From: a virus
Direction: 5' to 3' (one strand)
IMG/VR virus record: IMGVR_UViG_3300020172_000530
Span: 1-64,000 of that record
DNA: 64,000 nt
Shown here: in pieces, positions 790 to 30,200 of the stretch
Position numbering within the stretch: the first letter of the stretch is position 1
How the letters are laid out: each line of letters opens with the position of its first letter
Position numbers and translations under genes: made by a program
The notes under the pieces: model-generated
What the model was told of the DNA's origin: nothing
Seen by the model: only the letters and a program-made list of their open reading frames with translations
Databases searched by the model: none

Positions 790-795
790 TATTTA
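790..795 (-). promoter_or_regulatory. Late promoter -10 element (TAAATA)
   Basis: Minus strand taaTAAATAtgaattATG; same core as the T4 late promoter TATAAATA and other late genes here. Confidence 0.65.
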
Positions 796-797
796 TT

Positions 798-819
798 AAA
801 AGATGAACTGAGTTCATCT
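798..819 (-). terminator. Perfect 9-1-9 inverted repeat; possible terminator of the minus-strand operon or an operator
   Basis: AGATGAACT-G-AGTTCATCT at 801-819; on the minus strand the stem runs into a short U tract. Confidence 0.45.
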
Positions 820-859
820 GCTCTTCGCTTGAGCTCGAGCTTTTCTTTATATTAATTAT

Positions 860-1239
860 AATTAGTGCGAAGCACTTAAGATATTATCTAGATTGTTCAG
901 TCACATTTTGCCCAGAGCGGGCAAAGAGTAGGACATTATCTGAGTTGAACATTGTCACTTAGCGTTACAGCATTGCAGAGGCGGTCGTCCGGTACCTCGA
1001 GCTGCGTCTTTATACGACGGCGGTATGTAAATTTACGCTAACAAACGTACATACGTAGGGTATTTCTCCCTTCCTTAGCCTTTTTTATTCTTGTTCAGAC
1101 AGCAAAATGAGTTGTATGAAGGCATATCTCATCGTCATCCTTTCGGGTAGTTGCTGAATACTCTTTAACGGCGAAGAGACTTCCATCCCTGCGATCTGAG
1201 ATCCAGGTATAGGGCGCACGAACTTGGCTTGCGCTGGCC
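860..1239 (-). ncRNA. Candidate large structured non-coding RNA of unknown family
   Basis: ORF-free, about 47% GC by hand count (901-1240), about 10 stems, G-U wobbles and a GAAA tetraloop favour the minus strand, and a loop-to-downstream pseudoknot (1036-1041 with 959-964). Confidence 0.65.
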
Positions 1240-1680
1240 TTAACCGTTTAACTGTTTGCCTTTGATGTGAGATCCGTGGACACGAACACTGATCTGACCA
1301 TTATAATAATCGTCTGATTCTAGTACTCGCCTTGTGAATTGCTCTCTTGCCTCTATGTAACTACACTCTGCTTTTGATTTGCAGTAGTAGAGTATCTCTC
1401 TGTGGAAGTTGTCTGTGCCTAATTGTGCTACGTCTTTGGTGAGTTCGTCGGATGATCCGTAGTATTCTTGCCAGTCTGAGTCTATTTTTGACTTGATGCG
1501 TTTCTTTTTCTTTGTACCGTTCTTAAGTTTAACTACTTTGTAGGTTGTTTTTGAGAATTTTGCTAGTTTTTTGCCTATATACATGCGCCCTGTGTCTGTG
1601 TTAGTGATAAGATATACAAATCCTATACAGTCTTCGGGCAATTGTTCGACGAGTTGATTTTGATAATACCACGACATCAA
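1240..1680 (-). CDS. Stand-alone GIY-YIG family endonuclease
   Basis: GFVYLITN...MYIGKK, YYGSS, REIL...E and YYN motifs; no C-terminal DNA-binding domain. Confidence 0.85.
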   Translation of the reverse strand: MMSWYYQNQLVEQLPEDCIGFVYLITNTDTGRMYIGKKLAKFSKTTYKVVKLKNGTKKKKRIKSKIDSDWQEYYGSSDELTKDVAQLGTDNFHREILYYCKSKAECSYIEAREQFTRRVLESDDYYNGQISVRVHGSHIKGKQLNG

Positions 1681-1685
1681 GTTGT

Positions 1686-1925
1686 TTATGCCTTGTCATC
1701 GTCCTTGGCCTTTAAAAGTGATTCTCTATATTTTGGTGATTTAATTGGTGGTTTTTTGTGCCTGACTTCTTGTATCTCTGCTCTACGCTCACGTGCTATA
1801 ATACGTATTTCCGCTAGTAAATTGCGACATTTTATGCCAGCAACGTGAGTTTGTCTACTTTCCCACTCTTGATTGTATTTAAAATACTCTCTAAATAGGG
1901 TCATTAGCTGTTCGTGTGTGTCCAT
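1686..1925 (-). CDS. Small basic helical protein, possibly Hc1/histone-H1-like nucleic-acid-binding
   Basis: AGIKCRNLLAEIRIIARERRAEIQ resembles the Hc1 N-terminal AGxRxRxxLxE pattern; overlaps the gp46 stop. Confidence 0.55.
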   Translation of the reverse strand: MDTHEQLMTLFREYFKYNQEWESRQTHVAGIKCRNLLAEIRIIARERRAEIQEVRHKKPPIKSPKYRESLLKAKDDDKA

Positions 1926-3703
1926 TATACTATAATATCTAAGTCTGTACTATAGCTAGTAAAGCCGTTCTCTTTAATAACCTTGAGAACATTGTTTACT
2001 CGCCCAATAAGCTCGTCTTTATGACTGATCAAATAGATATTCTTGTTGCGTTCACGAGCCATTTTCTTTAAAACACTCAGGGCATTCTCCACTCCACTGG
2101 CATCAAGCCCGTTGTCTATAAGTTCATCTACAAATAACAAGTTAATATTCTGGTATAAGCTCTCCCATACATCTCTAAAGGACCAGCTCAGGCCAAGGAT
2201 CAGTCTGTTACGTTCGCCACGACTTAAATTATCAAAGTCTAAGTCTTGACCTAGTTGTGTTATTTCTACATTTAGGTCATTTAGGAATGTAACTTGATGC
2301 GGTAATCCCATCTTATCAAGATAGTAAGTTAGTCTACTATTCAAGTAGCTAAGATTCTGATCAATAATTTTCTTTCTAATAAAACTATCTTTATTGGTTA
2401 ACAATTTTAGAAGAAATTCTTGATGATCTTTTAAACTAGACAGTTCATTTACAAGATTCCAGTTAAGTTCTTGTAGTGCTGTGTTCTGTAATTCTTCAAT
2501 TTGTTCTGTATAAGGATCAATCTCTTGCTGTCGTTTACCTAACGCATCTTCTAGACTGTTTAAATTATTTTGGTGACGTAGTGCTTCACCTAATGTATCA
2601 TAAAAAGTTTGAGGACGCCCATTTATGTCTCCGATTGAATCCAATTCTTGTATGACTATAGCGTAACTGTCGCTTATTCCTTGTAAGAATACATACGCAT
2701 CGTCTAAGTTTTTTTGCGCAACAGTGATCATCTCTTGATGTTTATCTGTATGAAGACCTTGTTCACAAGCTGGACATTTATTATCAGCCAGTTTTTCTAA
2801 TTCTTTTTTATATTTGTTTACAGTTTTATCCGCTTGCATCACAGATGTTTCTAGAGTTGCTTTTTGTTTGTTTAGTGCTTTTATTTTCTCACTTAGCTCA
2901 TTATAAGTTTTTAATTTGGCATGTTGCTCTAATTCTTTTTCTATATCAACTGACTGCAATTCTATTATTTTTTCAGCTAGTTTCAAACAGTCTGCTTCTC
3001 GCTGATTATACCAAGCACCTTTTTTAATTGCTAATCCGTCAATACTTTGTTGTATCTTTTCGTTAGATTTCTTGGCTGCTTCTATATTAGCTGTCTCTTG
3101 TTGTATTTGATCTCTGCTGATCTTAACTTGTTCTTTTAATCCTTCTGCTTTTTCACTTAATAAAGTAATACCCAACAATTGTTCAATAATTTCTCGTTGG
3201 TCATTTGCTCTCATACTAAGAAACGGCTCTGTATAAGTGTTAAGAGCTACAATGTGTTTAAACATGTCATGGCTCATACCTAGTATGTCTGCTAGATCTT
3301 TTTGCGTTTCTCTAACATCACCTTGACTATCGTCTACTTCTGAGTTTTCTTGCTCTATGTCATTGACATAAAATTTTAAGATATTAGGCTTACGTCCTCT
3401 TTCTATACGATAATTTACACTGTCTTTTTCAAAAGCCAGTGTAACAAGCATGTTCTTGTTATTAATTTTATTAATTAAGTTATCTTTTTTAATATTTGTA
3501 AGTGCTTGTCCAAATAATCCGTAACTTAATGCGTTAACTATGGTAGTTTTACCTGTACCATTGCGCGAACCGCTGTCATCGCCGCCCATGTCTAGGTTTT
3601 CCCCTAGTACCAGAGTTAGTTGTTCCCGCTCAAAATCTACTGCTTGAGTCTGATTGCCCACACTCAGAAAATTCTTTACTGTTAATGTTTTTAATCTAAT
3701 CAT
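1925..3703 (-). CDS. gp46: Recombination endonuclease ATPase subunit (T4 gp46 / Rad50 / SbcC-like)
   Basis: Walker A NGTGKTT, coiled coils, zinc hook CPAC, signature LSRGE, Walker B LLFVDE, H-loop ISH. Confidence 0.95.
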   Translation of the reverse strand: MIRLKTLTVKNFLSVGNQTQAVDFEREQLTLVLGENLDMGGDDSGSRNGTGKTTIVNALSYGLFGQALTNIKKDNLINKINNKNMLVTLAFEKDSVNYRIERGRKPNILKFYVNDIEQENSEVDDSQGDVRETQKDLADILGMSHDMFKHIVALNTYTEPFLSMRANDQREIIEQLLGITLLSEKAEGLKEQVKISRDQIQQETANIEAAKKSNEKIQQSIDGLAIKKGAWYNQREADCLKLAEKIIELQSVDIEKELEQHAKLKTYNELSEKIKALNKQKATLETSVMQADKTVNKYKKELEKLADNKCPACEQGLHTDKHQEMITVAQKNLDDAYVFLQGISDSYAIVIQELDSIGDINGRPQTFYDTLGEALRHQNNLNSLEDALGKRQQEIDPYTEQIEELQNTALQELNWNLVNELSSLKDHQEFLLKLLTNKDSFIRKKIIDQNLSYLNSRLTYYLDKMGLPHQVTFLNDLNVEITQLGQDLDFDNLSRGERNRLILGLSWSFRDVWESLYQNINLLFVDELIDNGLDASGVENALSVLKKMARERNKNIYLISHKDELIGRVNNVLKVIKENGFTSYSTDLDIIV

Positions 3704-4710
3704 AAGTTATTGTATATTGAAAGTAAAACTTTTTTATCGTAAGTATCGCTGTCTATATTGACTAGCTGATTAGTTACAATTTGGTCTACACTTTCAAAGT
3801 CTTGTATTTCTAAAGTGCTAATCATCTCTATTTCTTTTTTTTCTGGAATTAGAGTTAGTTCTCTAATAGGATAATCGCCCATGAATTTTTCTTTGATAAA
3901 ATTAGCTTCTTCGTAGCTAATGTCAATGTCTAAGCTTACACGCAGATGTGTTTTAGGCAAGATAATATCACCAGCGCGGTCAATTAACTCGCTTAATTTT
4001 GTGGTTCTGTAAGTAGGTTGTCCAGGCCATGTATGATATGTAGGTTGCCCGCCCCATTCCATAATCATCATACCTCGATCTCCATCCCAATTGTCCGAAT
4101 AATTATGTGGGAAACAATTACCAATATATACCATGTTTCCTTTTTTCTGACGTTTATGAAAATGTCCGCTGAACCCTAGTTCATAATTGACAAAGTGATT
4201 TAATTGTATCTCTCCATGATCGGGCATCTGTACCATAGCGTTCATATAAAAGCTAGGTAATTCAAAATGACCAAACACATATCTTCCGCTTTGTTTAGCT
4301 ATAGTTTTCCATTCATCACCAATAAGCCATGGACATAGTGTGACGTCGTCTATAGTTGTAGGATGATGGATTACTGTAACACCTGGAATGTATTTTCCAA
4401 ACTCCACTGAGTGAATATCTCGTTTATCTTTATAGTACAGATCATGATTGCCAGGAAAAAAGAAAAACTGATCAAAGCTACTACCAAGTTTCTCCAATGC
4501 CCGGAGACTGAAATCCATAGTAGTAATATTAAGACTATTGCGATTGTGATGCCAATCGCCGAGAAAAATTCCAGTATCACAGCCTTCCTCCTTAGCTTTA
4601 GCAATATACCAATCTACAAAGTCTTCACAATCTTGATTATGTGTGTTGCTATTTGATTTTAATCCAAAATGTATGTCTGTTAAACATGCGACTTTTTTAA
4701 ATAGACCCAT
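3700..4710 (-). CDS. gp47: Recombination endonuclease nuclease subunit (T4 gp47 / Mre11 / SbcD-like)
   Basis: Phosphoesterase motifs TDIHFG, LGDWHH, GNHD, GHFE, SGHFH; start moved from 4740 to ATG 4710, which follows an AAGGA SD. Confidence 0.95.
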   Translation of the reverse strand: MGLFKKVACLTDIHFGLKSNSNTHNQDCEDFVDWYIAKAKEEGCDTGIFLGDWHHNRNSLNITTMDFSLRALEKLGSSFDQFFFFPGNHDLYYKDKRDIHSVEFGKYIPGVTVIHHPTTIDDVTLCPWLIGDEWKTIAKQSGRYVFGHFELPSFYMNAMVQMPDHGEIQLNHFVNYELGFSGHFHKRQKKGNMVYIGNCFPHNYSDNWDGDRGMMIMEWGGQPTYHTWPGQPTYRTTKLSELIDRAGDIILPKTHLRVSLDIDISYEEANFIKEKFMGDYPIRELTLIPEKKEIEMISTLEIQDFESVDQIVTNQLVNIDSDTYDKKVLLSIYNNL

Positions 4711-4855
4711 AAAATCCTTGTCCAATAATTTTTTGTACATCTTTCATCATGTCGTCATCCATCTGACAAATCCAAGATTCGTCATCAACCATTCTTGTAA
4801 ACAATAATTTTACTAGATACCCTTCGGGCAATCGCAATGTGATATATTTGCTCAT
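4697..4855 (-). CDS. 52-aa hypothetical protein (not in ORF track)
   Basis: MSKYITLRLPEGYLVKLLFTRMVDDESWICQMDDDMMKDVQKIIGQGFYGSI; ATGA overlap with the sigma gene stop, and its end overlaps the gp47 start. Confidence 0.7.
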   Translation of the reverse strand: MSKYITLRLPEGYLVKLLFTRMVDDESWICQMDDDMMKDVQKIIGQGFYGSI

Positions 4856-14800: not shown

Positions 14801-15281
14801 AATTAAATCTATAAGCGATGAAATTATATATCATCCGGTAAAATATAAAGTTCTTTTCGGAGAGAAATCCACCCAGGATGTACAAGGAACATTTAAGATA
14901 GTAAAAAATTCTGAATTAGTATTAAGTGACAACGATATCAAGTCAAGCACACTATCTGCGATAAATGAATTTTTTAGTATAGAAAATTGGGAATTTGGAG
15001 AAAGTTTTTATTTTACCGAGTTAGCCACTTATGTAATGAATAGATTAAGTCCTTATGTAGTGAATTTTGTTTTAGTACCAAAACAAACAGGATTAACTTT
15101 TGGAGCATTGTACGAAATTAAATGCGAAAAAGATCAAATCTTTGTTAACGGTGCTACCGTCAATGACATAGAAGTCATAACTGCGATTACAGCGAGTAAA
15201 TTAAGAGCAAGCGGAGCAATCGTAGCAAGTAATACAGCAACAGGACAACAGATTATAACTAGCGCAGGGATTGAAGACTAA
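11802..15281 (+). CDS. gp6: Baseplate wedge subunit gp6-like (baseplate J family, extended)
   Basis: YDFENLR...FNDYIESS, LAERRESV.RLA..LSY.P, FSDGTFGNIP, ES..SIK.RAP..Y.TQNRMITAEDY. Confidence 0.85.
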   Translation: MSATDRQNRLLVAEDWKRIYQTFRTADFQSYDFENLRRVMISYIRENYPEDFNDYIESSEYLALIDLIAFLGQSISFRTDLNARDNFLELAERRESVLRLARLLSYNPKRNISGNGLLKFSSVSTTQTVIDSNGRNISGQVVLWNDPANANWYDQFIKVINAALPASRQFGNPDDKATVYGIPTEQYRFQSANTDAPVYSFNKSVDGRSMPFEIVSTVFRNSEDIYEEPPAVGNRLAFIFKNDGKGNASSNTGFFLHFRQGILSQGTFDILQPSTSESIDIDAVNINNTDIWLYRLDQNGLETEYWQKVPSLEGNNIIYNSLKKSVRNIYSVITRAGDRASLLFSDGTFGNIPRGTFRVYYRTSNGISYTINPKDIRNISISVPYISNNAQVETLTVNLSLQSSIDNSSESESSDSIKSRAPATYYTQNRMITAEDYNISPLSVNQQVIKIKAVNRSASGISRYFDLVDPTGKYSKTNLFADDGIMYKEEFTESFKFSYQNRTDIEAVIYNQVIENLKSVALRDFYYSNFFTVVTDSLSVSWYSRTVDTNQCTGYISDVRNPSIFYDTDPVPYKLGSYTSTLLRYLTPGALVEFTPPSGYYFDKSNDNQLVRGTANVKDAVTRLWCKVISVAGDGTAGGDGVFADGSGPIVFNDIIPQNSLLNQIIPAWRTTLDTNTISTMIDLIFANKPFGLRYDIQTKSWKIVFEVNLNINDRFSLGKQGDNSNQQLDSSWLLLFTTDTEFYTVKSRLLRYVFESEKQVRFYFDASDKIYDTRNNSTVKDKIKILNINTQPDSITPFTIDREWEITEEFKGLDGYVDTKKIQVTFSDTDDDGVVDNPILFEEVVAPTISPTTKKIVLEKYEISAGQEDYRYIDNSNQTVIFVSSLSFLTNLGTISDGQYVYAEDTDSVYKFTLASATFEPSIDYKVYVGRPDLKFQYIHNADYESRIDPGITNLIDIYVLTKQYDQNFRQWLNNSLENEPYPPSQDSLFSLMSTDLNKIKSISDEIIYHPVKYKVLFGEKSTQDVQGTFKIVKNSELVLSDNDIKSSTLSAINEFFSIENWEFGESFYFTELATYVMNRLSPYVVNFVLVPKQTGLTFGALYEIKCEKDQIFVNGATVNDIEVITAITASKLRASGAIVASNTATGQQIITSAGIED

Positions 15282-18200
15282 TGGCAAATAACGATCAAGA
15301 AGAATTTGGACTTCCAATAGACGGCAATGAACCAAGAAAAACTTCCAACTTACTACCAAGGACTTATAGAACTGATAGTAATAAAAAGTTTTTACAAGCA
15401 ACATTGGATCAGCTTACCCAGCCCGGAAAAGTAAAAAAACTCAACGGGTATATTGGTCAGCAAAATGCCAAGTCAGCTAAATCAGACGATATCTATATTG
15501 ACGCAAGCGATCAGATAAGGCAGCAATATCAATTAGAGCCTGGTGCTGTTATACAAGATAAGTTTGAAAATGTAACCTTTTATAAAGATTATATTGACTA
15601 TATTAATCAAATTGATGTATTTGGCGGCGATACAAAAAATCACGAGCGTATTAACCGACAGGAATTTTACAGTTGGAATCCTCATATAGAGTGGGACAAG
15701 TTTGTAAACTTTCAAAATTATTATTGGTTAGCCTATGGGCCTGATGTAATTAAGGTGTTCGGCCAACAACTGGAAATAGAAAGTACGTATACTGTAGATT
15801 TGGTTGACGAAGACGATAATTATGCTTTTTTATTCTCTCCAAATGGTCTTACAAGAAATCCTACCCTAAGACTTTACAGAGGTCAGACTTACAATTTTAC
15901 AGTTAACAGTCCAGGAAATCCTTTTAGTTTTAAATTATCAAGAACAGCCGGTGACCTTGATAGATATCTTAAAGGAGTTTCCGCAGTCTCTGTAGAAAGC
16001 GGAACTATTACATTTAAAGTAAGAAAAGATGCTCCGGATCTGATATACTATGTAAATGAAAAAGATCCTACTGCTGGCGGTGTTATTCAAATTTTAGATA
16101 TTGAAGAAAATACTTTCTTAGATCTAGAAAAAGATATCTTAGGAAAAAAAGATTATACATTAACATCGGGTGTAAAAATTTCCAATGGTATGAAATTAAA
16201 TTTCGAAGGAAATGTAAGCCCTGCTGAATACAAAGATGGTAATTGGTATGTAGATGGAGTAGGCTCGGCCATTACTCTGATTCCAGAATCTGCCTTAGAA
16301 ATTATAAGCACTTATACACAAGAATCTGAACTTTTATTTGATGATACACCTTTTGATAAGGATCCTTTTAGTGTAGCAAGTGCGTATCCTAGAGATAATG
16401 ATTATATAGTCATGGCTAGAGGTTCTAAAGATAGAAACCCTTGGAGTAGATATAATCGATGGTTTCATGAAGATGTAATCAAAGTTTCAGCACAGGCTAA
16501 TGGTAAAATACCAGATATTGATCAATCTTTGCGAGCCGTACGACCAATTATAGAATATGAAGCAAACATCAAATTATACAACTTCGGGCACGAAGCTAAA
16601 AAAGATGTTGATTTGATTGACACATTCACAACTGATGTATTTTCTATTATCGAAGGAAGCACTGGCTATAACATAGATGGAGCAAATCTTGCTCCTAATA
16701 TGCGGGTTTTATTTACAGCTGATCCGGACATATTAGTAAAAGACAAAATCTTTAAAGTAACATTTGTTGATATCATAGTCCCTCAACGACAGATAGAATT
16801 TGTAGCAGACTCTACAGTAAATCCAAATACAGATGTTATTACATTTGAAACAGACCATTTTTTAAATACAGGAGTCCAAGTAACGTATCTGAATAATGGA
16901 AATAATGACATTAGTGGATTGAGTAACAGACAACAATATTATGTTTATGTTGTTAGTGCTACACAAATCAAGCTGTTTACTGATAGTAAATTAACGAAGC
17001 AAGTAGACATACTAACCAGAGGAACTAGTACTCATAAGTTTGAGGTTTTTGTTGGAAAGAAAAGACAAATTAATCTAGTAGAAGAACCAGATACTATACC
17101 TATTCATTATGAAACTGTTATAATTAAAAGCGGAGATAAAAATAAAGGTTCGATGTTTTGGTATAATGGTGTTGATTGGAAATTAGCGCAGACCAAAACT
17201 ACAGTGAATCAACCTATTTTATTCGATGTGTTTGATTCTAATAGTAATAGTTACAGCGATATAACAGTATACGAAGGGTCTACCTTTATAGGAAATAAAA
17301 TTTTTAGTTACAAGCAAGGTCCAGGCTTGCCAGATAAAATTTTAGGATTTCCACTCAGTTATAAAAACATCAATAATGTAGGCGATATTGTTTTCACCTT
17401 TGATCTTTTACAGGATACTTTCAATTATAAAACATCAACGTTTATTCAGAGCAAACGTACTGACATAGGATTTTTGAGAAAAATCTCTAACTTAGATACT
17501 TGGAGTTATGAAAACGGATGGAAAAAATCTGAAATTAATAGTACTCAGCCTATTATAAGAATTTTCAAAGAATCTGGATTAGTAAATAATTTTCCGGTTG
17601 ATGTATATGATAACACCGATCAGTTATCTGATTTAGAGGTCAGAGTATATGTAAATGGAAAACGACTGAATAGAGAATTATACACTTTAGAAAGAGGTGT
17701 AGTTCGTTTCTCTATTGTATTAGATAATGATGTTACTGTTAATGATATCGTTACTTTAAAATGCTTTTCGCAACAAGCAAAAAATAGTAACGGGTATTAT
17801 GAAATTCCAATCTCTTTACAAAATAACCCTCTTAACAATAATCTTGAATCGTTTACTTTAGGCGAAGTAGTCGATCATGTAAATTCAATAGTTGATAACA
17901 TTTTGGATTTTAAAGGAATGTATCCAGGTCCTGGTAATCTAAGAGATTTAGGGAACCTTACTGCCTATGGAACAAGAATAGTTCAACATAGTAGTCCGTT
18001 AAATTTACCGTTATATCATTTAACAAACACCGATACAAATATAGTAAAATCCATAATACAAGCACAAGAAGATTACGCTACTTTTAAACGAACATTTTTA
18101 ATTACGTCTGGAAACACAGGTGTAGACATGGATTCTAAAAGACATGTTGACTTGATTCTTGAAATGATGTTGAAAGACAGACCTAGCACAACTTCGTATT

Positions 18201-21200
18201 ATTTGTCTGACATGTTTGGATACGCTGGTTCTACTAGATTAGAATATTTGGTAGAAGACGGTAGATTTCAAAGAATATTTTCTATTTCTCGGTCTTTTAG
18301 TTTAGATACTTTAAGTAATCAAGCTGTGTATGTTTATAGAAATGGACAGCAGTTAATTGAAGGCATAGATTATATATTTGAAAACAATGATGTTTTCTTC
18401 ACCATCATAGGAGAACTTAATGATGATGATATTATTGAAGTCTACGAGTACGAGACAACAGACGGAAGTTTTTGTCCGCCTACGCCTACAAAATTAGGAT
18501 TATACCCTAAGTTTAAACCTAGTAAGTATATAGATGACACGTACTTAGAGCCCAGGGAAGTTATACAAGGACATGACGGTAGTATCACTTTTGCCTATGG
18601 TGATTATCGAGATGACTTATTGCTTGAACTTGAGTTAAGAATTTACAATAATATTAAACAAAAATATGATCCGTCAATATTTGATATTTGGAGTTTTATT
18701 CCTGGCTATAATAGAAAAACTAATTATACCAAAGAAGAATTCGAGCGTGCGTTAAGTCCGAGCTTCTTCCAATGGACAAGTAATATTAATCAAGATTTTA
18801 CAAAACAAACTTATTGGGACAGCACACAACCATTTACATTTAACTACAGAGATAATTATTATCCAGATGGTACAGATAGTCAAGCGTTTTGGAGAGGAAT
18901 CTACTGCTGGTTATTTGATACTGATAGGCCTCACACTGATCCTTGGGAGTGTTTAGGATTCAGTGTTCAACCAACGTGGTGGCAAGAAGTATACGGTGCT
19001 GCTCCTTATACTAAAGACAATCAATTGTTATGGGAAGATTTGTCGCAAGGCATTATAAGAGAACCAGGAAAGCCGCCAAGATATCATGAAAAATTTGCTC
19101 GACCTTTATTAGCTAACAGCGCACCGGTTGACGAGTTAGGCAACTTAATCAGTCCTTTAAATTCAAATTATGTATCCGGCCCAATTAAATCAACGCCAGA
19201 AGGTTTTTATTCTTTTGGAGACAGAAGTCCTGTTGAAACTGCTTGGCGTAGAAGCAGTTACTATCCGTTTGCTTTAATAAAAACAATTTTACTTTTATAT
19301 CCTAATATTATGATGTCGGTTGGGTTTGATAGAAGTAGACAAGTTAAAAATAATACTAATCAGATTGTATATTCTCCATCTGGATTGAGAATCAGGTTGT
19401 CTGATATAGTTATACCTTCTACAGTTAATGATGCTACGAGAATTTTCTCTTCCGGGCTAGTAAATTATATTGTTGAATATGCCACATCCGATGTTACATT
19501 TAAAATAACTAATTACCAAGAAGATCTTCGATTACTTACAAATAAAATCTCTCATAAGCTAGGAGGATTTACAAGTAAAACTAAATTTAACATACTGTTA
19601 GATAGTAAAAATCCTACAAGCTCTGGCGGAGTCTTTGTGCCAGATGATAATTTTAATATTTTCTTAAACACATCTAGTCCTGTTAAAAAGTTAGCATACA
19701 GTGGTGTAGTTGTTAGCAGATATTCTGATGGGTTTGAAGTTAGAGGTTATAATTTTGACGAACCATTTTTCACTTACTATTCTTATAGACAAAATGAAAG
19801 AGTTATCAGAGTAGGGGGTATCTCAGAAAGTTATGTAACTTGGGATTCTAATAAAACCTATGTTGCTGGAAAAATAGTTCTAAATGGAAATGTATATTTT
19901 AGAACTAAAATTACACACCAGTCAGGCGATGTGTTTGACGATACGTTATTTGCTAAACTTCCAGGACTGCCTATGACTGGCGGCGCAGAAGCAATTTTAA
20001 GAAAGAGCTGGGATACAAGTCAAGAATTATTTTTAGCTTACGGTACTAAACTGGCTACTATACAAGAAGTTATAGATTTTTTACAAGGATATGGAACGTA
20101 CTTACAAGAGCAAGGCTTTGTATTCGATCAATATAACCCAAAAATTAAGTCTGTTACAAATTGGGAAACTAGTATTAATGAATTTTTATTTTGGACTACA
20201 CAGAATTGGGGCGAAGGATCTGCTCTATCGTTAAGTCCTGCTGCGTCTAAGTTAGTGATAAAAAGCGACAGAGCAGTTGTTGATGATATACGAAATGCGT
20301 TTTATGGTTATAAAATATTTAAAGTAGATGGACAACTATTAGGACCAGAATTTGTAAGTACCTTTAGAGGCGACAACGAATTTTCAATAATTCCTCAAAA
20401 CACTGTTCATGGTATTTACGGAGGAATTTTTTATCTAGTTCAGAAAGAACATGTATTATTATTAGATAACACAACTTTATTCAATGATGTAATTTATGAT
20501 CAAGAACCGGGTTATAGACAAGAGCGTATTAAAATTATTGGTTATATAACCACAAACTGGAATGGAGGACTGTCTATTCCAGGATTTATATTTGATCAAG
20601 CGTATATCAATGATTATCAATCGTGGACAGATTATAATTTAGGGGACATAGTAAAATATAAAGAATATTATTATAGTGCCTCAAAATTTGTTGTAGGTAC
20701 CGAAACGTTTAATTCAGAAGATTGGGTATTATTACGTGAAAAACCTACACCTAAACTAATACCAAATTGGGATTACAAAGCTGAGCAGTTTACAGATTTT
20801 TATGACTTAGATACAGATAATTTTGATAGCGAACAACAAAGAATGGCTCAGCACCTTATTGGCTATCAAAATAGACAATACCTCGAGAACATTATTAAAG
20901 ACGATGTTAGTCAATATAAATTCTATCAAGGTATGATTATAGAAAAAGGAACTCAGAACGTTTTAAATAAATTATTTGACGTTCTTAGTGCTGATAATCA
21001 AGAAAGTTTAACCTTTAACGAAGAATGGGCTGTGCGTGTTGGAGAGTACGGCGCGAGCGGAGTTTATGAAGAAATAGAATTTAAATTAGATGAATCTAAA
21101 TTTAGAATTAATCCACAACCGATACAATTACTAACTCAAGCTCCTGATTCTAATATAGACTTAATTTATAGAATTACTTTAGGGGAAGTACATGTTAGAC

Positions 21201-24200
21201 CACTAGGATATAACAATAATCCGTGGCCTACTTTAGGAATGAAAAAAGCACTACGATCTCCAGGTTATGTAAGATATGAAGATGTAAAAATTAATATTGA
21301 CACTCTTGACGAAGTACTTGATACTCCTATTGACGAGTTTGAGGAAGGCGATTATGTTTGGACAGCATTTGAAAACAGAGATTGGAATGTATATAGATTT
21401 ACTAAAAATATCTTTCGTATAGAAGATGTGGAATATAGTGATGGCACGCTTACGTTACAGTGCGAAACATTTCCTGATGTAACAGCAGGTAGTATTATAG
21501 GAATAACCCACTCTGAAAAAATTAAGGGATTCTATAAAGTTGAATCCGTTTCGGCTAGGAAAATAATAATTAAAACAGTTGTTAAAGATTGGAATCCTCC
21601 ATTCGCTGATAGTTCCGAGATTCTCACTTATAAATTTACATCTAGTAGATTAGATTCGATAGATAATGCCAATGCGCAATTACCACCTTATATAAAAGAT
21701 AAAGAATTATTATGGGCAGATATTGGTAGTAAGAATTTATCATATAACGGAGTTGTTCCTTACACTGTATATTCCAATGAAAAAATATTTTTAAGAAATA
21801 CTTTAGAAAATACAGATCCAATGATTGATATAAAGTTTGGATCAAAAGTTTCATTGTGTAAAAACGGAAAATTTTTAGCTGTATCGACTGCTGCTAACGA
21901 AGTATACATTTATGAAAAATCACCAGCGACTGATGTATGGTACCAGCATCAATTAATTACACCTAATTTAAAATTAGCTAGTACAACTAATTTAAATTTT
22001 GGTGACGAGATAGCATTCAGCGCAGATGGAAAATGGTTAGCTATAGCTGCTTCTACTGCGTCTAATATCAAATCAAATTGGAAAGGAGATTTTTATAATT
22101 CTAATTCTTATGCGTTTGGAGATGTCGTACAGGTACGAAATACACACTTCAGTGCCAGACGTAGTGCGGTAGCTAATGATTTGTCCACTGTAGATAGATT
22201 CAGTCAAGACTGGGCGCCGACATATCTTGTGACTACAGAAGAATCAAAATCTGCTAGTTCTAATATTAATCAAGGATATGTAAATCTTTATCTAAGAACA
22301 TCAGGAGGAAACTATGGATTATTACACAGCTTTGTAAGCCCAACTCCGACTGCTGGGGAACTGTTCGGTTCTAAAATGACGTTTGCTCAAAACGGTAACG
22401 AGTATATTTTATCAGTTACTAGTTCGGGATATAACGAGAACCAAGGCCGTGTGTATATGTTTAGATACGCAGAGTTAGAAGAAGACAGTACACAATCCGG
22501 ATGGCACATGGATTATCGTAGATCTTATGTAGGAATTTTTAGCCCAGGTAAACAATATTATCCTGGCGATATAGTGTTTTATAATTATGAGCTGTATCAG
22601 TGTATAACAGAACAAGATCCTAATAGTTTCGAAGCAAATGCCAGCGGCTGGCAAATATTAGACGATACTAGTATATTAGGATATTTCCCACAAGATGTTG
22701 CTACTAATGTAACTGATGTAACTCCGATTGTAATTACGAACATTGTTCCTAACACACCGGTTACTACAGGTTCTATAAAATTTAGAAGAGCTACTATTTC
22801 TTATGCTACACAAGCAAGTGCCCCGTTTACAGCAGGTCAATTTATAGAAATAAGAAATGCCAATCCAGAAGTATATAATGGTGACTGGCTCGTTTATAGC
22901 GCATCTGCTACGCAAACAGTTATAGTGTGTCCATTTCCAAGATTTTTACCTGCTCCTAATATAACAGTTGAAGATCCATTATACAAGTATGTTGCCGGCG
23001 GCATATTAACTTTAGCTATAGTTTCACCAACACGAGAACAAAATGTAGAATCTGTATTACCTGGAGATTTATTCGGATATGATGTGTCTATGAGCGGCGA
23101 CGGTAGCAAACTAGTGATTAGTGCTCCTAACGCAGATCAAAATACATATAATAATTACAAAGGTAAATTTAGATCTACTGAGAAATACGATGTCAATGAT
23201 GTAGTATATTATACTGGTGGTGTTGATCCTGCAGGATACTATAGTTATAAGAAAATATTTGATAGTTCTATAGCAGGTACCTTTAATTCAGCAGATTGGA
23301 GATTACTGACTACTACACAGTTTAATAATACAGGCAAGATTTTTACTTACGAATACGACGGTGACGCATTTGTGTTAATTGATACATTGGGTGCTCAGAA
23401 CTTAAATCTAACTTATGAACAACGATTTGGAGAAAGTTTATCTGTTAGTGATTCTGGAAGTCATTTAGCGGTAGGGTCTACACTTTATTCTGCTGACTTT
23501 TCATTACAAGGATCAGTAAAAGTATTCGAAGCCTATTCCGGGTCTTGGGCTCCTTATCAAACTTTAACTAGTACTGTTCCAGGAACAAATCATAAATTTG
23601 GACACTTTGTGGAATTTATGAATGATTCTGAAACGTTAGTTGTTTATAATGTCAACGCAGATATTAAAAACGAAACTACATTTGATGATTCTTTAACTAA
23701 ATTTGATAATTCAACCTTACGAGTTATTGATTTACAAATATTATCTGGTAGAGTAGACATTTTTGACAAATATAATACAAATTACGTGTTCGGGGAAAGT
23801 CTAACTACAAATTCAACTAACGATTTTTCAGATGGTTATGGAAAGAGTATAGCTGTTGGTAGTAATAATATAGTAGTTTCTGCCGCTAAAGAACATAATC
23901 AAGGATACGAAGATGCTGGAATAGTATATTCTTACCGCAAGCCAGCTGGAAAAACAAGCTGGAGTGTCTTACATTACGAGCGTGCTAGACCAAATGTACA
24001 ACAAATTAAAAAAGCTTTCTTATATAATCGTCGAGAAAACATATTAATAAAATATCTTGATATAGTAGATCCAGTTCAAGGTAAGATACCTGGACCAGCA
24101 GATCAAGAGATTAAATTTAAAACTTACTACGATCCAGCTACGTACACGGTTGGCAATGCCAGTGTAAATGTAGACGATGGCATGTCTTGGACTAATACGT

Positions 24201-27200
24201 ATAATGGTATGCTATGGTGGGATTTAACCACTGCTAAATTTTTAGAGAATCAAGGAGGAGAGATTGTTTTCAGATCTACTACTTGGAATACTCTTTACGA
24301 AACAGCCAGCATAGATATTTACGAATGGATAGAAAGTAAACTACTACCTTCTGAAAGAGATAAAATTTCCGACACAGAAAAAGGATTAATATCCGGCATA
24401 AGCGGAAAGTCCAAATATGGTGATAGTGTATATAGTATAAAACAAAAATATGATACTATAAGCAAGACATTCAATAAAACTTATTATTATTGGGTCAAAA
24501 ATTCTACAATTGTTCCAAATAAAGAAGGCAGATTAATGTCTGCTGATTTAGTGTCAAGATTAATTTCTGATCCAAGAAATTATGGATATCCATGTTTAGT
24601 ATTATTAGGACCTGACAGTTTCAGTTTAGTGAACGTCGATAGTTACTTAGAAGATAAAGATGTGGTATTAAGTGTTCAATACTGGACAGTGGAAAATAAA
24701 GAGAACAATGCTCACACCCAATGGAAAATAATCAGTGAACATCCTAATACTGTTATCCCTTACGAAATAGAACAAAAATGGTTAGACAGTTTATTAGGCA
24801 GAGACAAGAACGGACGCACAGTTCCTGATTTAAAACTTCCAGTAAAACAACGATTTGGTATCGAAAATCGTCCAAGACAAAGTATGTTTGTTAATAGAAT
24901 CGAAGCACTCAAGCAATTTATTGAACGTGTTAACGCTATTCTTAAACCAACTTTAATTGTTGACGAGTTTGACTTAACACCATTAACTAAGCTAGAAGAA
25001 CCTCCTAGCGCAGTAAGTGGAGCATGGGATATAATAATCGACACTGACGAAGAATTTAGATTCGTAGGTACTAGTAATTTAGAGCAAATTAAATTATTGC
25101 CTGTTATTGAAGATGGTAAAATCGTAGATATAGAAGTCGCCCAGAGAGGAAAAGGATATGTTAATCCTCCAACTTCTGTTATTACAGGTAAAGGCAAGAA
25201 CGCAGAGATTCAAATTTATCTAAATGATACAGGCGGTGTAGAATCAGTTAGTATATTAAATCAAGGCTTCGGCTATAAATCAGATACTATTATTACTGTA
25301 AGACCTTTCAGTGTACTTGTTCAAAGCGATAGCGATAGTTACGATAAATGGAGTATCTATCATTTTAACAGAACAAATAGAAGCTGGACAAAAAATAGAT
25401 CACAAAGTTATGATGTAACGAAATTTTGGAATTACGCAGATTGGTATCTGTCAGGATATGATCAATTTACTAAATTTAATTACATAGTTGAAAATACTTA
25501 CGAATTAGCTTTCTTAGAATCTAATATTGGTAATATAGTAAAAGTCAAGAATGTGGGCACTGGTGGATGGATATTGTTCGAGAAATATAACGACGTAATA
25601 ACCACAGATTATACACAAAATTATAAAGTGATAGGAAGACAAAACGGAACAATACAATTTTTGGATCTTTTATATAATTTTAAAGGCCGCGCACAAGGGT
25701 TTGACGCACTGTTATATGACGCAGCACAGTATGATGCTGTTCCAAGTGCCGAATTAAGTATAATCTTAGATACTATAAAAACAAAATTATTAGTAGATAA
25801 TTTGAGAGTAGAATATCTCAAGTTATTTTTCTCTAACGTAAGATATGCGTTATCTGAGCAGCCATTTTTAGATTGGGTTATGAAAACCAGTTTTGTTAAA
25901 GCTACTCATAATGCTGGAGAATTACAACAGAAAACAAATTATAATAGTGATAATCTACAAGACTTTGAAAGTTATGTAAATGAAGTAAAACCTTATAGAA
26001 CTAAAGTAAGAGAATATATTAGCGGATATACTCGATTAGATAATGCTGCTCTTTCTGTAACAGATTTTGATTTACCTCCTATTATAGATGAGGATTATAA
26101 AATAAATCCGCTAACTGTAATGTTAAATGAAAATTATGCTATAAGTTCTTCATACAGTCAGTTATTAGATTATCCGTGGAAACATTGGTATGATAATGCT
26201 TCCTATTCTGTTGAAACTTTAGAATTAGTCGATGGAGGCAAAGGGTACATAGATCCTCCAGTAATAAACATTGTAGACGATTACGGAATAGTGACTTCGA
26301 CTAATACCTTACAATCTAATTTTGATGGTCCAAACAGCTTCTGGAATCTGGGTGAAGGTACTATGAAAGTAGTGGCTACAGGATTACCTTGCCATAGTTA
26401 TGGTATTCAAGATGCTGAAAACATAGCAACTGATCAAGATTATAGCCAAATACTACCGCTAAGAGGAGGCACTTATGCTGCCGGAATCCACGCAAGTATT
26501 CCTCAAGGCATAATTGGTTACTGGCTTAATGGTGTAGCAGTATTCAATCCTAGTGCAGGCGACACAGTACCTGAAGGCTTTGAATCTGTAATGGATTATA
26601 ATTTTAATGCTGCCTATGCCAGTGCTGAAGTTTTAGAATACAATTTTGGACATGACAGGGCTGGCGGACTTGTAACTGCTGACGGAGAATATTCTTACAG
26701 AGACTTCAGTTTTAAAGATGCTTGGTTATCGGGCATAGGGAATGACCTAGCAGATGTTAATAAAATAGATACAATAGAAATACCTTACTTGAGAAGCGGG
26801 TTTGAGCACGCCGACGGCCATAGTAAGATTATTGGATTCGCATTAGATGGTTATCCTATATACGGACCAGATGGATATAGTACTGCCACAGATCCTTCAA
26901 GCGGTATTGTAAGAATGACTTCTAGCTATGGATTACGAGTAGTTAGTTACAGGCCTCAAATACTACAAGATACATCAGTATATCCAATGGGTATATTCAT
27001 TCAGGACTACGAATATATAGGTAATGGATCACTTGATAAACACAACGGAAGATATTGTATAACTCCTGACTATCCAAATGGAACCTATGCCTACTTTGTA
27101 ACAACTACAAGCGCAGGCACTCCTGCTTATCCGTATGTAATAGGTCCTACATTCTTTGGAGATGCTGCTCCTCAAGACAGAAATGATGCTACTAACGGCA

Positions 27201-30200
27201 AAGGAACAGCACCAAGAACATACAATCTATATAACAGTAGTGCTATTCAAGCTACTGCAAAGGCTTATATTACTAATGGAAAAGTATCTAGAGTAGTGTT
27301 GACCACATCTGGGTCAGGATATCTTAAAGCACCTAGAGTAGTATTCGATGGCGGGCTAGATACGAATATAGAAAATTCTCCTGCTCAAGCAGTGGCCGTG
27401 TTAAAAAATAATGTAGTAAGGTCAAACAAGACTATTATTAAATTTGATAGAAACACAAGAAATTATTTTGTAACAGAATTAACGCAGGTTGAGAATTTTG
27501 TAGGAACAGGCAGTAGAAAGCAATACTCTTTAAGATTTAGTCCAATTTTAACTATAGGTCATACTTCAGTTAAAATCAACGGTAATGAAATCCTAAGAGA
27601 TGATTATGCTCTTTCCATCAAGAAATCTAATGTTAAAGGATTTACTACCTACTACGGAGTATTAACGTTAGAAACTGCTCCTGCTATAGGTGACGAAATT
27701 GAAATTACTTACGATAAGAATTTTGAACATCTAAATGCTGCTGACAGGATTAATTTTTATTACAATCCTCAAACAGGCCAACTAGGAAAAGATCTAGCTC
27801 AGCTAATGACAGGTATTGACTATGGAGGTGTTATTGTCAGCGGATTAGGACTTAGTATTGGCGGCGGCTGGGATAGCCAACCCTGGTTCAGTGAAGGATG
27901 GGACGGATATGATGTTGGGTTTACAGACTATATTGTGTCAGTTAGTGATAGCACTTATGTATTTGACTTGCCTTATGTACCTGCTGCAGGTGAGCAAATT
28001 AATGTATATGTCAATGGTGTAAGATTAGATGATGAGTATTTTGATAGCTATGACGGAGTCACTGTACAACCTAATGGAAGAACTACTGCTCCTGAAGGCC
28101 GAGCAATGCAGACTTGGGTAGGCGATGGAATTGATTTCACTATTGAATTACCAAATTTAACTAGTAATGTTCCTGTTGACATAAATGACGGAGATAAAAT
28201 AATTTTCCGTAAGAGTACTAGTGATGGAAGTATTAATCCGGATCCAAAGAGTTTTGATACACAACTGCAAGGCGGTAACTTAGGATATACGACAGCCACA
28301 GGATTTGCTCCAGATGACGTAGTATTGGACGGCGGCGGTAGATTTGTTACTCCTGATACTAGTCATGCTCCTGAGGAAATTGTACCTGGGCATATCACTG
28401 ATGCTCTAAATATTAAAGTTTTCTGCTTACCAAGTTCTGGGTCTTCTAAGATAATTTCTAAAAATTATATCTGCGATGGTATTACAACCCAGTTTAGTGT
28501 CGGACAATTTCCTAACAACACTGCAGGATTATTTGTTAATCTTGATAATCAAATTTTAAAACAAGATGTAGATTATACGCTGGATTGGCAAACAAAGATT
28601 GTTACCATGGTAACAGCGCCAGCAGATAAAAAAATTATTAATATAACCAGTTTTGGAACAGCTACTGAAAATCTTTTAGATTCTAATTTCTTTGTAGCAG
28701 ACGGAAGCACTTCTGATTATATTACCAATGCGCCTTGGCCACAGTTAGCTTTAGATGAAGACTTTCAACAGAGCATAGACAGATTAGGTTCTATTGTACT
28801 GGTAAACAATCAGACTGTTGAATATGAATTATTTAGAACAGACGAATCTTATGAAACTACAGGGTTTGTTGGAATAAGATTTCCAGCTCCGCCTCAAGAA
28901 GACTCTATAATAAATTATATAATGACAGGCGATGCTAATAGCACTATATCATTAATTAATTCCCAAGCACTTAATATAGACGGATCGTCTGTTTCATATA
29001 GTTTAGGAACGGTACCTGAAGGATATTCCAACCCTTATGAAAATTATATTTTAGTTGTATCTGACGGTAATTTATTAAGACCGGCAGAGTCACTTTATTG
29101 GAAAATGTCCGATAATGAATATGTGTATGAAATTCCAAATTATAAGGTACTGCCATTTACTTTGGATCCAAGTACTATTAAGGTTTATATTAATGGGGTA
29201 CAATTATCATCCTTGGATTATACGTTAAACAATTCTAATTTAACTATTGAAGTTAGAGATTTTGTTTACGAAGATGGCGCTATCTTAACATTAACCCGTT
29301 TTGAAGACACTGATTATACTATAAGTGGTAATAATATAATTTTTGACATAGCACCTACAAGCAATGTAGATGTGGTTACTTTCTTTAATCACTCAGTACA
29401 AAATATTGTTAGAAGTAGAGAATATTTTAATATAACTTCTGCGTTAGTTCCAGGAAGCACTTCTTATTACCAGTATCAGAGTATAAAAGGGGGTGCGTTA
29501 AAATTATTTAGACTAGTACAATCTGATGATTACATCTGGGTGGCTAAAAACAGGGAGTTGTTAGTTCACAGTGTAGATTATTATCTAGATGACGATCACA
29601 GAACGATTAAATTTAAAGATACATTTACAGATTCTGATGTAATTGATGTTATTTTATTCGGAGATAAAAACGTTACAAACAGCTTTGGATTTATGCAGTT
29701 CAAAGACATGCTGAATAGAACACATTATAAGAGAATAAGTAAAAACAAATCTACACGTTTAGCTAAAGATCTTAATCAGCGTGATTTGACAATAGAAGTA
29801 GAAAATGGAGCTGTACTTAGTGACCCTAACAGAGCACTAAATCTACCAGGAATTGTAGAAATAAATGGAGAACGAATAGAATATCTAACTAAAAATGTTA
29901 ATGTTTTAGGACAATTACGCAGGGCAACATTAGGCACAGGTAGCCCAGCAATACATAGAGTTACATCTGTAGTATTAGATATCGGCCCAACGGAAACGAT
30001 TCCGTACAACGACGAATTCATAGTTGAATCCAGCATCGGAGATAGTAATACCAAGAATATTGGATTAAGTTATGCTCCTACTAAAGTTAATACAGATTGG
30101 TATACTGAAACTATTCCTGCTAATTATGGACGTAGTGATGAACTCGAAGTGTTTGTTGGAGGGTACCGTTTAAAGAAAACTCCTTACAGCTTGTTTGATG

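Follow-up and report, generated by a model that had tools for sequence, protein, structure and literature searches.

A multiply knotted, modular non-coding RNA with a twice-repeated word in freshwater T4-like phages and bacterial integrase islands

The only long gene-free stretch in the window

What is encoded in the one long stretch of this phage DNA that has no gene? The window, meaning the whole stretch of DNA analyzed here, covers the opening 64 kb of an IMG/VR record 76.7 kb long (CheckV completeness 22%), and its longest ORF-free gap is the 456 nt at 784-1239, whether the ORF cut-off is set at 50, 70, or 100 aa; the runner-up gaps at these cut-offs measure 66, 111, and 303 nt, respectively. 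A preliminary description made from the sequence alone had placed a structured RNA at 860-1239, in what it took to be the sole long non-coding stretch of the 64 kb, and had put its GC content at ~47% by hand count. Both the isolation of the gap and the GC enrichment are borne out, GC being 45.5% in 860-1239 vs. 35.0% across the window. No conserved ORF was found inside 784-1239 among homologous viral loci. The neighboring genes are:

3700-4740, minus strand: gp47-like recombination nuclease gene
1925-3703, minus strand: gp46-like recombination nuclease gene
between the gp46-like gene and the GIY-YIG ORF, minus strand: 79-aa ORF
1240-1680, minus strand: SegE-like GIY-YIG ORF, 146 aa (Pfam PF19835, 3.1e-34, residues 4-130)
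1-783: gene cut by the contig end, next after the gene-free stretch

The 5′ third belongs to an orphan Rfam family

Using cmscan, we identified Polynucleobacter-1 (RF01718) at 1097-1239 on the minus strand with a score of 106.8 bits (E 3.8e-22) over model positions 1-141 of 141, which places the segment in the family by its gathering cut-off of 37 bits; this was the sole Rfam match in 64 kb at gathering thresholds. A permissive scan of 700-1400 against Rfam 15 (E ≤ 10) gave four weak and far subthreshold matches to unrelated families outside 1097-1239 (three snoRNA families and one antisense sRNA family) and no match to any group I or II intron, RNase P RNA, riboswitch, or T-box model. ARAGORN found no tRNA or tmRNA gene in the window and listed no tRNA near any of the viral RNA loci, some rows of the latter output possibly having been missed in parsing. 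The earlier description had not recognized the RNA as a tRNA, tmRNA, RNase P RNA, or group I/II intron, and these results agree. The same description had regarded the RNA as unannotated and without a known family, and had proposed an Rfam search in which a hit would take its novelty away; the search returned RF01718, and the claim fails for the 5′ 143 nt (1097-1239). It stands for the remaining ~300 nt, including the pseudoknot already noticed there, which are absent from Rfam.

Polynucleobacter-1 is an orphan motif from a 2010 survey with no assigned function (Weinberg et al. 2010, Genome Biol 11:R31, PMC2864571). Its sources were environmental samples and one Polynucleobacter genome, its 3′ half was not always detected, most copies lay downstream of a gene of the GOS11034 family with a possible homolog, PSSM2_218, in cyanophage P-SSM2, no copy was found by its authors in a sequenced phage, and a cis-regulatory role was tentatively considered, with the table entry "cis-reg: y" (PMC2864571 and its supplement). 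We found no other publication that names Polynucleobacter-1. The segment at 1097-1239 shares with the published motif a fit to the whole 141-position model and the same habitat (fresh water, Polynucleobacter), and the context may be likened too, the published copies lying mostly downstream of one gene family and the copy here downstream of the SegE-like GIY-YIG ORF.

The conserved element is three times longer

With nhmmer, the entire 456 nt, well beyond the Rfam part, proved to be conserved in >40 viral contigs at ~70-86% identity (E down to 1e-71); a pattern derived from the motif had gathered 120 viral contigs, with true copies in 77. Alignment A1 consists of 48 non-redundant full-length homologs, and a 22-helix structure was written from the stems of the preliminary description together with features visible in A1. 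The extent first given, 860-1239, lies inside the conserved element and was too short, since the element runs to a terminator at ~797-819 and has, in addition, a ~20-nt leader over the GIY-YIG stop codon. Most loci have a leader motif, GGC-N(5-8)-AA(C/G)GGUAA, ahead of the Rfam start; since it lies beyond the stop codon in many of these, its conservation is at the level of RNA or DNA rather than protein. The parts are listed below in window coordinates, RNA position p being 1240 minus the window coordinate.

797-1239, minus strand: whole conserved RNA, ~440 nt, with 5′ domain, knotted middle, twin-box module, and terminator (nhmmer, A1)
1240-1260, minus strand: possible 5′ leader GGC..AACGGUUAA, seen across loci, overlapping the final codons of the GIY-YIG ORF together with its stop
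1097-1239, minus strand: 5′ domain, RF01718, with P1-P6 and the 3-bp pseudoknot pk0
RNA positions 1-3 with 12-14: pk0, double changes in 2 of 3 pairs
1214-1218/1230-1234, minus strand: P1
1188-1196/1200-1207, minus strand: P2
1161-1165/1174-1178, minus strand: P3
1100-1105/1151-1156, minus strand: P4, enclosing P6 and the CC-GAAA-GG hairpin P5
1058-1070, minus strand: P7 hairpin (first described as 1057-1060/1068-1071)
1023-1054, minus strand: P8/P8a hairpin (first described as 1023-1029/1048-1054), whose loop UUAGCGU forms pk1
1035-1041, minus strand: pk1 5′ strand, the UUAGCGU loop, pairing with 959-965
959-965, minus strand: pk1 3′ strand, ACGCUAA, pairing with 1035-1041
967-1018, minus strand: knotted junction of P10, P11, and P9, with near-invariant GGUACCGG and ACCGCC
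1001-1005/967-971 and 994-998/978-982, minus strand: P10 and P11, together the stem first described as 967-984/989-1005
1014-1018/984-988, minus strand: P9, second pseudoknot, 3 covarying pairs
946-951/894-899, minus strand: P12, enclosing box 1 and P13, in a subset of homologs (61% paired)
935-945, minus strand: twin box 1, constant ACUC (942-945) and word AGAUAAU (935-941)
919-925/907-913, minus strand: P13 hairpin, 92.7% paired, flanked by the two boxes
883-893, minus strand: twin box 2, constant AUCU (890-893) and word AGAUAAU (883-889)
864-876, minus strand: P14 variable hairpin (stem 864-868/872-876), missing from many homologs
820-840, minus strand: P15 hairpin with conserved loop GAGC(U/G)..AGCGAA
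801-819, minus strand: P16 terminator hairpin, followed by a U tract at 797-800; 7 of 7 pairs covary, 90% paired
790-798, minus strand (A1 columns 606-615): T4 late-promoter-like TAATAAATA, directly after the terminator, for the next gene

The RNA is a member of RF01718 with a true extent three times that of the catalogued motif, and its conserved core is an uncatalogued twin-box module. Whereas the 5′ third is known, being covered by RF01718 and the 2010 survey, and is unexplained, the ~300-nt remainder (pk1, P9-P11, twin boxes, P15, and terminator) is found neither in Rfam nor in PMC2864571 and occurs without the RF01718 domain in RNA classes B and C, described below.

Covariation supports a multiply knotted fold

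Single-sequence folding energy is not significant on either strand (z −1.6 to −1.8), and support for the fold therefore comes from the comparison of homologs. In A1 (n = 48), 91.1% of cells are paired under the 22-helix structure vs. 36-45% with partners slid, 71 of 102 pairs show double-sided changes, and compensatory cells number 626 against 72-137 in the slid controls; no shuffle in 500 reached any of these measures. Covariation among homologs, which the preliminary description had proposed as a test, is thus present, and nearly all the stems listed there are backed by compensatory changes across the 48 homologs. Within the RF01718 part, double changes preserve 4 of 5 pairs in P1, 4 of 5 in P3, 4 of 6 in P4, and 3 of 6 in P6, these helices being 98-100% paired. 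The single helix entry for P7 and P8/P8a (helix 11) has double-sided changes in 11 of 11 pairs and is 92.4% paired. The pseudoknot originally proposed between 1036-1041 and 959-964 is a 7-bp helix, with double-sided changes in all seven pairs and 95.8% pairing, and two pseudoknots come in addition to it: pk0, in which RNA positions 1-3 pair with the P1 loop, and P9, which crosses P10 and P11. Helices 13-15, which form the knotted junction, are 96-98% paired, with 3, 4, and 1 covarying pairs. Of the original stems, the hairpin 1005-1008/1016-1019 is doubtful, its 5′ strand being better explained by P9. The assignment to the minus strand is confirmed by the RF01718 match and by abundant G-U pairs (A1 columns 116/150, 294/306, and 118/148), and the RNA lies, as had been said, on the same strand as the gp47-gp46-GIY-YIG genes of the upstream operon. 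Together, the covariation, pseudoknot, and Rfam evidence show that the anatomy and strand first proposed were right and that the stretch encodes a real, multiply knotted structured RNA of ~440 nt.

A seven-nucleotide word is kept identical in two boxes

Among the phage and bacterial RNAs with locatable boxes, the 7-nt word that follows the constant tetramer is identical between the two boxes in 76 of 80 RNAs, with 15 identical-word types. When changes of the word were counted on a tree made from the rest of the alignment, the boxes being left out, they came to at least 16, every one affecting both boxes, and the identity of the two words is therefore enforced and not merely inherited; word position 1 (A/G) changed at least 10 times by itself. 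No covarying complement of the word was detected within the RNA or from −300 to +800 nt around it, and neither a genome's own word nor the complement was enriched in 510 kb of flanks; in the AT-rich window itself, occurrence counts are uninterpretable.

Several candidate partners were rejected. A cis partner, GUUGUUU at RNA positions ~125-131, is invariant, accommodates A/G-rich words by wobble alone without covariation, and fails for GGAUGAA, GCAUAAU, AGAUGAG, and every bacterial word. Mutual information between the box columns and the rest gave correlations that follow clades only (e.g., column 87 or 581). Kissing with an anticodon loop was discarded as word position 2 would face the always-purine tRNA position 37. 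Two features of the words may be recorded separately. Word positions 3-6 read AUA-A or AUG-A in every phage class and CGA-A, CAA-A, or AGA-A in bacterial copies, and such a codon-like triplet with an invariant A recalls a T-box specifier, although concerted change elsewhere in the word argues against that likeness. In the commonest bacterial variant (e.g., L243), a single RNA contains AGCGAAA four times: once in each box, once within the P15 loop, and once immediately ahead of the invariant CCGCC. Only the two box occurrences change together.

The 5′ part is interchangeable in related phages

The 80 viral loci closest to the GIY-YIG protein of the window carry an RNA of the window's type (class A) in 65 cases, class B in 9, and class C in 3, with none within 2.5 kb in 2 and no downstream room in 1. 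Sampling downstream of GIY-YIG homologs, which the preliminary description had also suggested, thus returned a twin-box RNA in 77 of 80 loci. Class B RNAs (among them L300:2925-3400, L320, L328, L343, and L344) have a different 5′ part of ~230 nt and retain GGUACCGG..ACCGCC, the twin boxes, P15 (GAGCG..AGCGAA), and the terminator. Class C RNAs (among them L308:3180-3700 and L310) have yet another 5′ part and the word ACAUGAA and stand behind an extra small ORF. No Rfam match was obtained in class B or class C RNAs, which are candidate new RNA families, and blastn of class A, B, and C RNAs against 50,697 cultured phage records gave no match. In an alignment of the modules, ACUC, AUCU, and the P15 loop are invariant across classes, and P13, P15, and P16 are of unrelated sequence in each class; at the P13 position, class A, class B, class C, and the bacterial copies each have a hairpin of unrelated sequence, four in all, and the P15 loop is kept in all of these on covarying stems. 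As judged from these alignments, the twin-box 3′ module is a shared core behind several exchangeable 5′ parts, a feature new to this analysis.

Bacterial copies lie in integrase islands beside DUF6641

A loose pattern scan of genome contigs yielded 119 chance loci in 120, L225 being the sole true one, and this one true match, in a betaproteobacterial metagenome-assembled genome (MAG), pointed to a carrier genus, presumably Polynucleobacter from the motif's history. Of 151 genomes sampled across the family, 2 had an RF01718 match above the cut-off and a third had one below it; in the carrier genus, 17 of 151 species genomes had such a match above the cut-off, sometimes twice at different chromosomal places. 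The carrier genus includes complete chromosomes of ~2 Mb, some of which contain RNA copies; a bacterial copy had no blastn match among PLSDB plasmids. Bacterial-type copies are full-length, with a pk1 of their own (CCACU with AGUGG) and the words AGCGAAA, AGAGAAA, GGAGAAA, AUCAAAA, and AACAAAA. None of the 18 examined had a GIY-YIG gene next to it, and all 18 had a divergent DUF6641 gene 116-198 nt upstream; in 10 of the 18, a ~190-aa tyrosine recombinase of the FimB/Xer kind was encoded 0.8-1.4 kb downstream. Full-length copies of the RNA without GIY-YIG thus sit in integrase islands next to DUF6641, which is likewise new here. The DUF6641 gene is absent from the 76.7-kb phage record.

One locus, L252 (G263:C80:7050-9200), is a phage-type class A copy with the word GCAUAAU on a contig binned in a carrier-genus MAG; the contig may come from a phage and have been binned wrongly, or it may point to the host of the phage. 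In other Burkholderiales, where DUF6641 occurs up to four times per genome, further twin-box RNA classes lie beside it at loci L349, L350 (G464, G317), L369, L366, and L368 (G017, G342). A repeated GAAUCAGUCA is present at L349 and the word AGCGAUG at L368, and L349 and L350 have a small ORF between the DUF6641 gene and the RNA.

Transcription and the 3′ boundary

Metatranscriptome coverage of 852-1109 consists of a contig from a relative, with a depth of 3 and possible DNA carry-over, and other contigs fall on the GIY-YIG gene and gp46; the comparison used assembled contigs of four runs and bears on neither expression, ends, nor excision. We found no sigma-70-like promoter on the minus strand at 700-1750, which counts against a separate transcript. 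Because a T4 late-promoter-like box sits directly after P16, the gene downstream of the RNA is probably late, and terminator and promoter would form a composite boundary. Downstream genes vary in identity, family, and orientation between loci. An exact TATAAATA, the T4 late-promoter consensus, follows the terminator in many relatives.

A stand-alone RNA and its alternatives

The reading that we favor on balance, with moderate confidence, is that the minus strand of ~797-1239 encodes a structured non-coding RNA, modular and stand-alone, that mobile elements carry and that is not a guide of the neighboring nuclease. Its carriers would be a freshwater T4-like phage lineage and the integrase islands of a betaproteobacterial genus, presumably Polynucleobacter. 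Of this reading, the fold of the RNA, its modular composition, the enforcement of word identity, and the occurrence of the RNA without a GIY-YIG gene are shown. The anatomy would comprise an exchangeable 5′ domain, here Polynucleobacter-1; a knotted middle of pk1 and P9-P11 with the invariant GGUACCGG and ACCGCC; and a 3′ twin-box module in which ACUC plus the word, a hairpin, AUCU plus the word, the GAGCG..AGCGAA hairpin, and an intrinsic terminator follow one another, both boxes being single-stranded. In the phage, the RNA may be made by read-through from the gp47-gp46-GIY-YIG transcription unit and end at P16. It would act in trans, as RNA or ribonucleoprotein, independently of the neighboring nuclease, and the boxes could be a specificity element in two copies, recognized through base pairing by a partner in which one sequence likewise occurs twice; this partner is presumably encoded neither in the RNA itself nor within ~10 kb.

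Evidence against a stand-alone RNA is the very tight linkage to GIY-YIG in phages, which still fits a functional pair: among viral loci reached through the RNA, 74 of 77 have the gene immediately upstream or no more than ~2 kb upstream, and among those reached through the protein, 77 of 80 have a class A, B, or C RNA. The RNA might accordingly be the targeting or scaffold partner of this minimal nuclease, the boxes acting as guides, for example to the two strands of a dyad-symmetric site. Consistent with such a partnership, the 146-aa protein consists of the catalytic domain (Pfam residues 4-130) with no DNA-binding domain, it is as conserved as core genes (58-90% identity vs. 47-84% for gp46), and the word varies among relatives, as a specificity element would. 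However, the 18 bacterial-type copies have no GIY-YIG neighbor, insertions of 0.8-1.8 kb or an extra ORF part the gene from the RNA in some phages (0.8-1.8 kb apart in 5 viral loci), and no target-like complement of the word was found in the RNA or the flanks searched. Homologs of the protein are present in 519 cultured phage records, including 22 Prochlorococcus and 339 Synechococcus phage records, and in cultured T4-like phages the gene occupies other contexts: in the four that were checked (Melnitz, ACP17, V45v66, and P-HM1, which lists the homolog as "T4-like GC 213"), there was no Rfam match near the gene, which is directly followed by annotated genes in ACP17 and P-HM1 and by a gap of ~150 nt in Melnitz. 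The obligate co-occurrence of RNA and effector that marks omega-RNA-like systems is broken by the 18 bacterial-type copies and the four phages, which together argue that the RNA does not depend on the GIY-YIG protein. Adjacency of gene and RNA is weak evidence in T4-like phages, which inherit a conserved order of genes. Tight linkage across three RNA classes in the phage lineage nevertheless keeps the ribonucleoprotein idea in play as an unlikely explanation. Homologs of the GIY-YIG protein are labeled "NAD synthetase" in many cyanophage and rhizobiophage records (KY979132.2 9483-9905; GU071101.1 157848-158333), which looks like an annotation error copied between records, since Pfam assigns a SegE-type GIY-YIG domain.

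A related and quite improbable proposal makes the twin-box module a programmable recognition device that would bear no relation, as a guide or bridge RNA system, to CRISPR, OMEGA, or IS110. Two identical 11-nt single-stranded guides, each a tetramer and the 7-nt word, would pair either with both strands of a DNA site that has dyad symmetry or with an RNA site present in two copies, and would recruit the element's own small enzyme, the GIY-YIG nuclease in phages and the tyrosine recombinase or DUF6641 in islands.

It is very doubtful that the RNA is of a decoy or antitoxin type in a conflict between phage and island, with the island copy working with a protein such as DUF6641, the phage copy neutralizing it, and the boxes being two sites for an RNA-cutting or RNA-binding protein. 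Such a role would suit an RNA found only in mobile elements of the host genus and in phages likely to infect its relatives. The G093 island also carries, besides its first integrase, a second one and a C5 methylase, and across the order twin-box RNAs of at least three classes adjoin DUF6641 at 8 of 20 evaluable loci. Type III antitoxin RNAs have processed direct repeats, which the boxes recall, and phages are known to carry look-alikes of them. Against this, DUF6641 stands without a twin-box RNA at the other 12 of the 20 loci, the gene and the RNA are divergent and have no antitoxin-toxin operon layout, and the repeat is limited to 11-12 nt with no whole units. DUF6641 matched nothing in PADLOC or NCBIfam and no PDB sequence, the other island proteins had no PADLOC match either, and we found no literature on DUF6641. 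Nor does the protein have a recognizable fold relative: with its AlphaFold model (pLDDT 87), Foldseek gave nothing below E 0.19, VIA-align gave coiled-coil-like rows only (Z ≤ 5.4), and Atlas returned its own family alone. A phage decoy would moreover not match its island counterpart, because phage and bacterial RNAs use different words.

Less probable still is that the boxes are DNA sites within the RNA gene, crossover cores of a tyrosine recombinase or iterons, kept identical by the need for a 7-bp overlap or by DNA-level copying. Tyrosine recombinases of the FimB/Xer kind typically have a 7-bp overlap, such an enzyme is encoded downstream of 10 of the 18 bacterial-type copies, and repeat identity would need no RNA partner. 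Yet phages keep the identity without a recombinase near the RNA, and invertases of the FimB type work on inverted repeats, not on direct ones such as these. No further box copy (and no tRNA gene) lies in the 16 kb around the G093 copy, and no contig joined across the two boxes in four runs, contigs only being weak evidence on this point. Finally, a cis-regulatory leader or trailer of a neighboring gene is barely credible: the RNA does lie between same-strand genes and was entered as "cis-reg: y" in 2010 (PMC2864571), but a conserved terminator and a late-promoter-like box stand before the next gene, whose family and even strand vary between loci, its 440 nt and three pseudoknots are far beyond usual leaders, and in bacteria it stands alone.

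Relation to known RNAs of mobile elements

GOLLD, ROOL, and HEARO are large orphan structured RNAs of phages and mobile elements that came from the same 2010 survey and later work, and HEARO was later tied to its neighboring nuclease IscB as a guide RNA. Large, multiply knotted bacterial RNAs have repeatedly proved to be ribozymes, guide RNAs, or assemblies. The twin-box RNA shares with GOLLD, ROOL, and HEARO a length of several hundred nucleotides, many covarying helices, pseudoknots, a free-standing position in phages, prophages, or islands, and a function not known at discovery. It differs in having no sequence or model match to them in 700-1400 at E ≤ 10 and, from HEARO, in that its neighbor is not constant as IscB is; we know of no description of a duplicated identical word in any of the three. 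With the omega RNAs of IscB/TnpB and the bridge RNA of IS110 it has in common the setting of a structured RNA in a mobile element, close to a gene for a small nuclease or recombinase, and short variable single-stranded segments in a constant scaffold. Unlike these, it has no IscB, TnpB, or IS110 gene at its locus, its neighbor being GIY-YIG in phages and DUF6641 or a tyrosine recombinase in bacteria, and its variable segments are mutually identical rather than made for two sites, with no target found. ToxI-like RNAs of type III toxin-antitoxin systems also have direct repeats in a non-coding RNA of phage-related elements; here the repeats are 11-12 nt, occur twice, and lie within a large unique fold, and neither an operon with a toxin gene downstream nor a PADLOC match was found. 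The tandem whole-unit repeats and operonic toxin gene that identify type III systems were both missing.

Polynucleobacter-1, a 141-nt Rfam orphan since 2010, is thus one of several interchangeable heads on an RNA body that is larger and more widely shared than the catalogued piece and that is common in freshwater T4-like phages and in the islands of their likely hosts. That both copies of a word have stayed the same over at least 16 independent changes has no ready explanation and offers a direct experimental handle, and the presence of the RNA in both phages and islands is a concrete lead for assigning a host to an abundant uncultured phage lineage. Interest in the system would be broad should the word turn out to be a guide; otherwise, the RNA is still a well-defined orphan that merits an updated Rfam entry. 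Elsewhere in the window, 15281-30790 on the plus strand is a single ORF of 5169 aa among structural-looking genes, unusually large for a phage protein.
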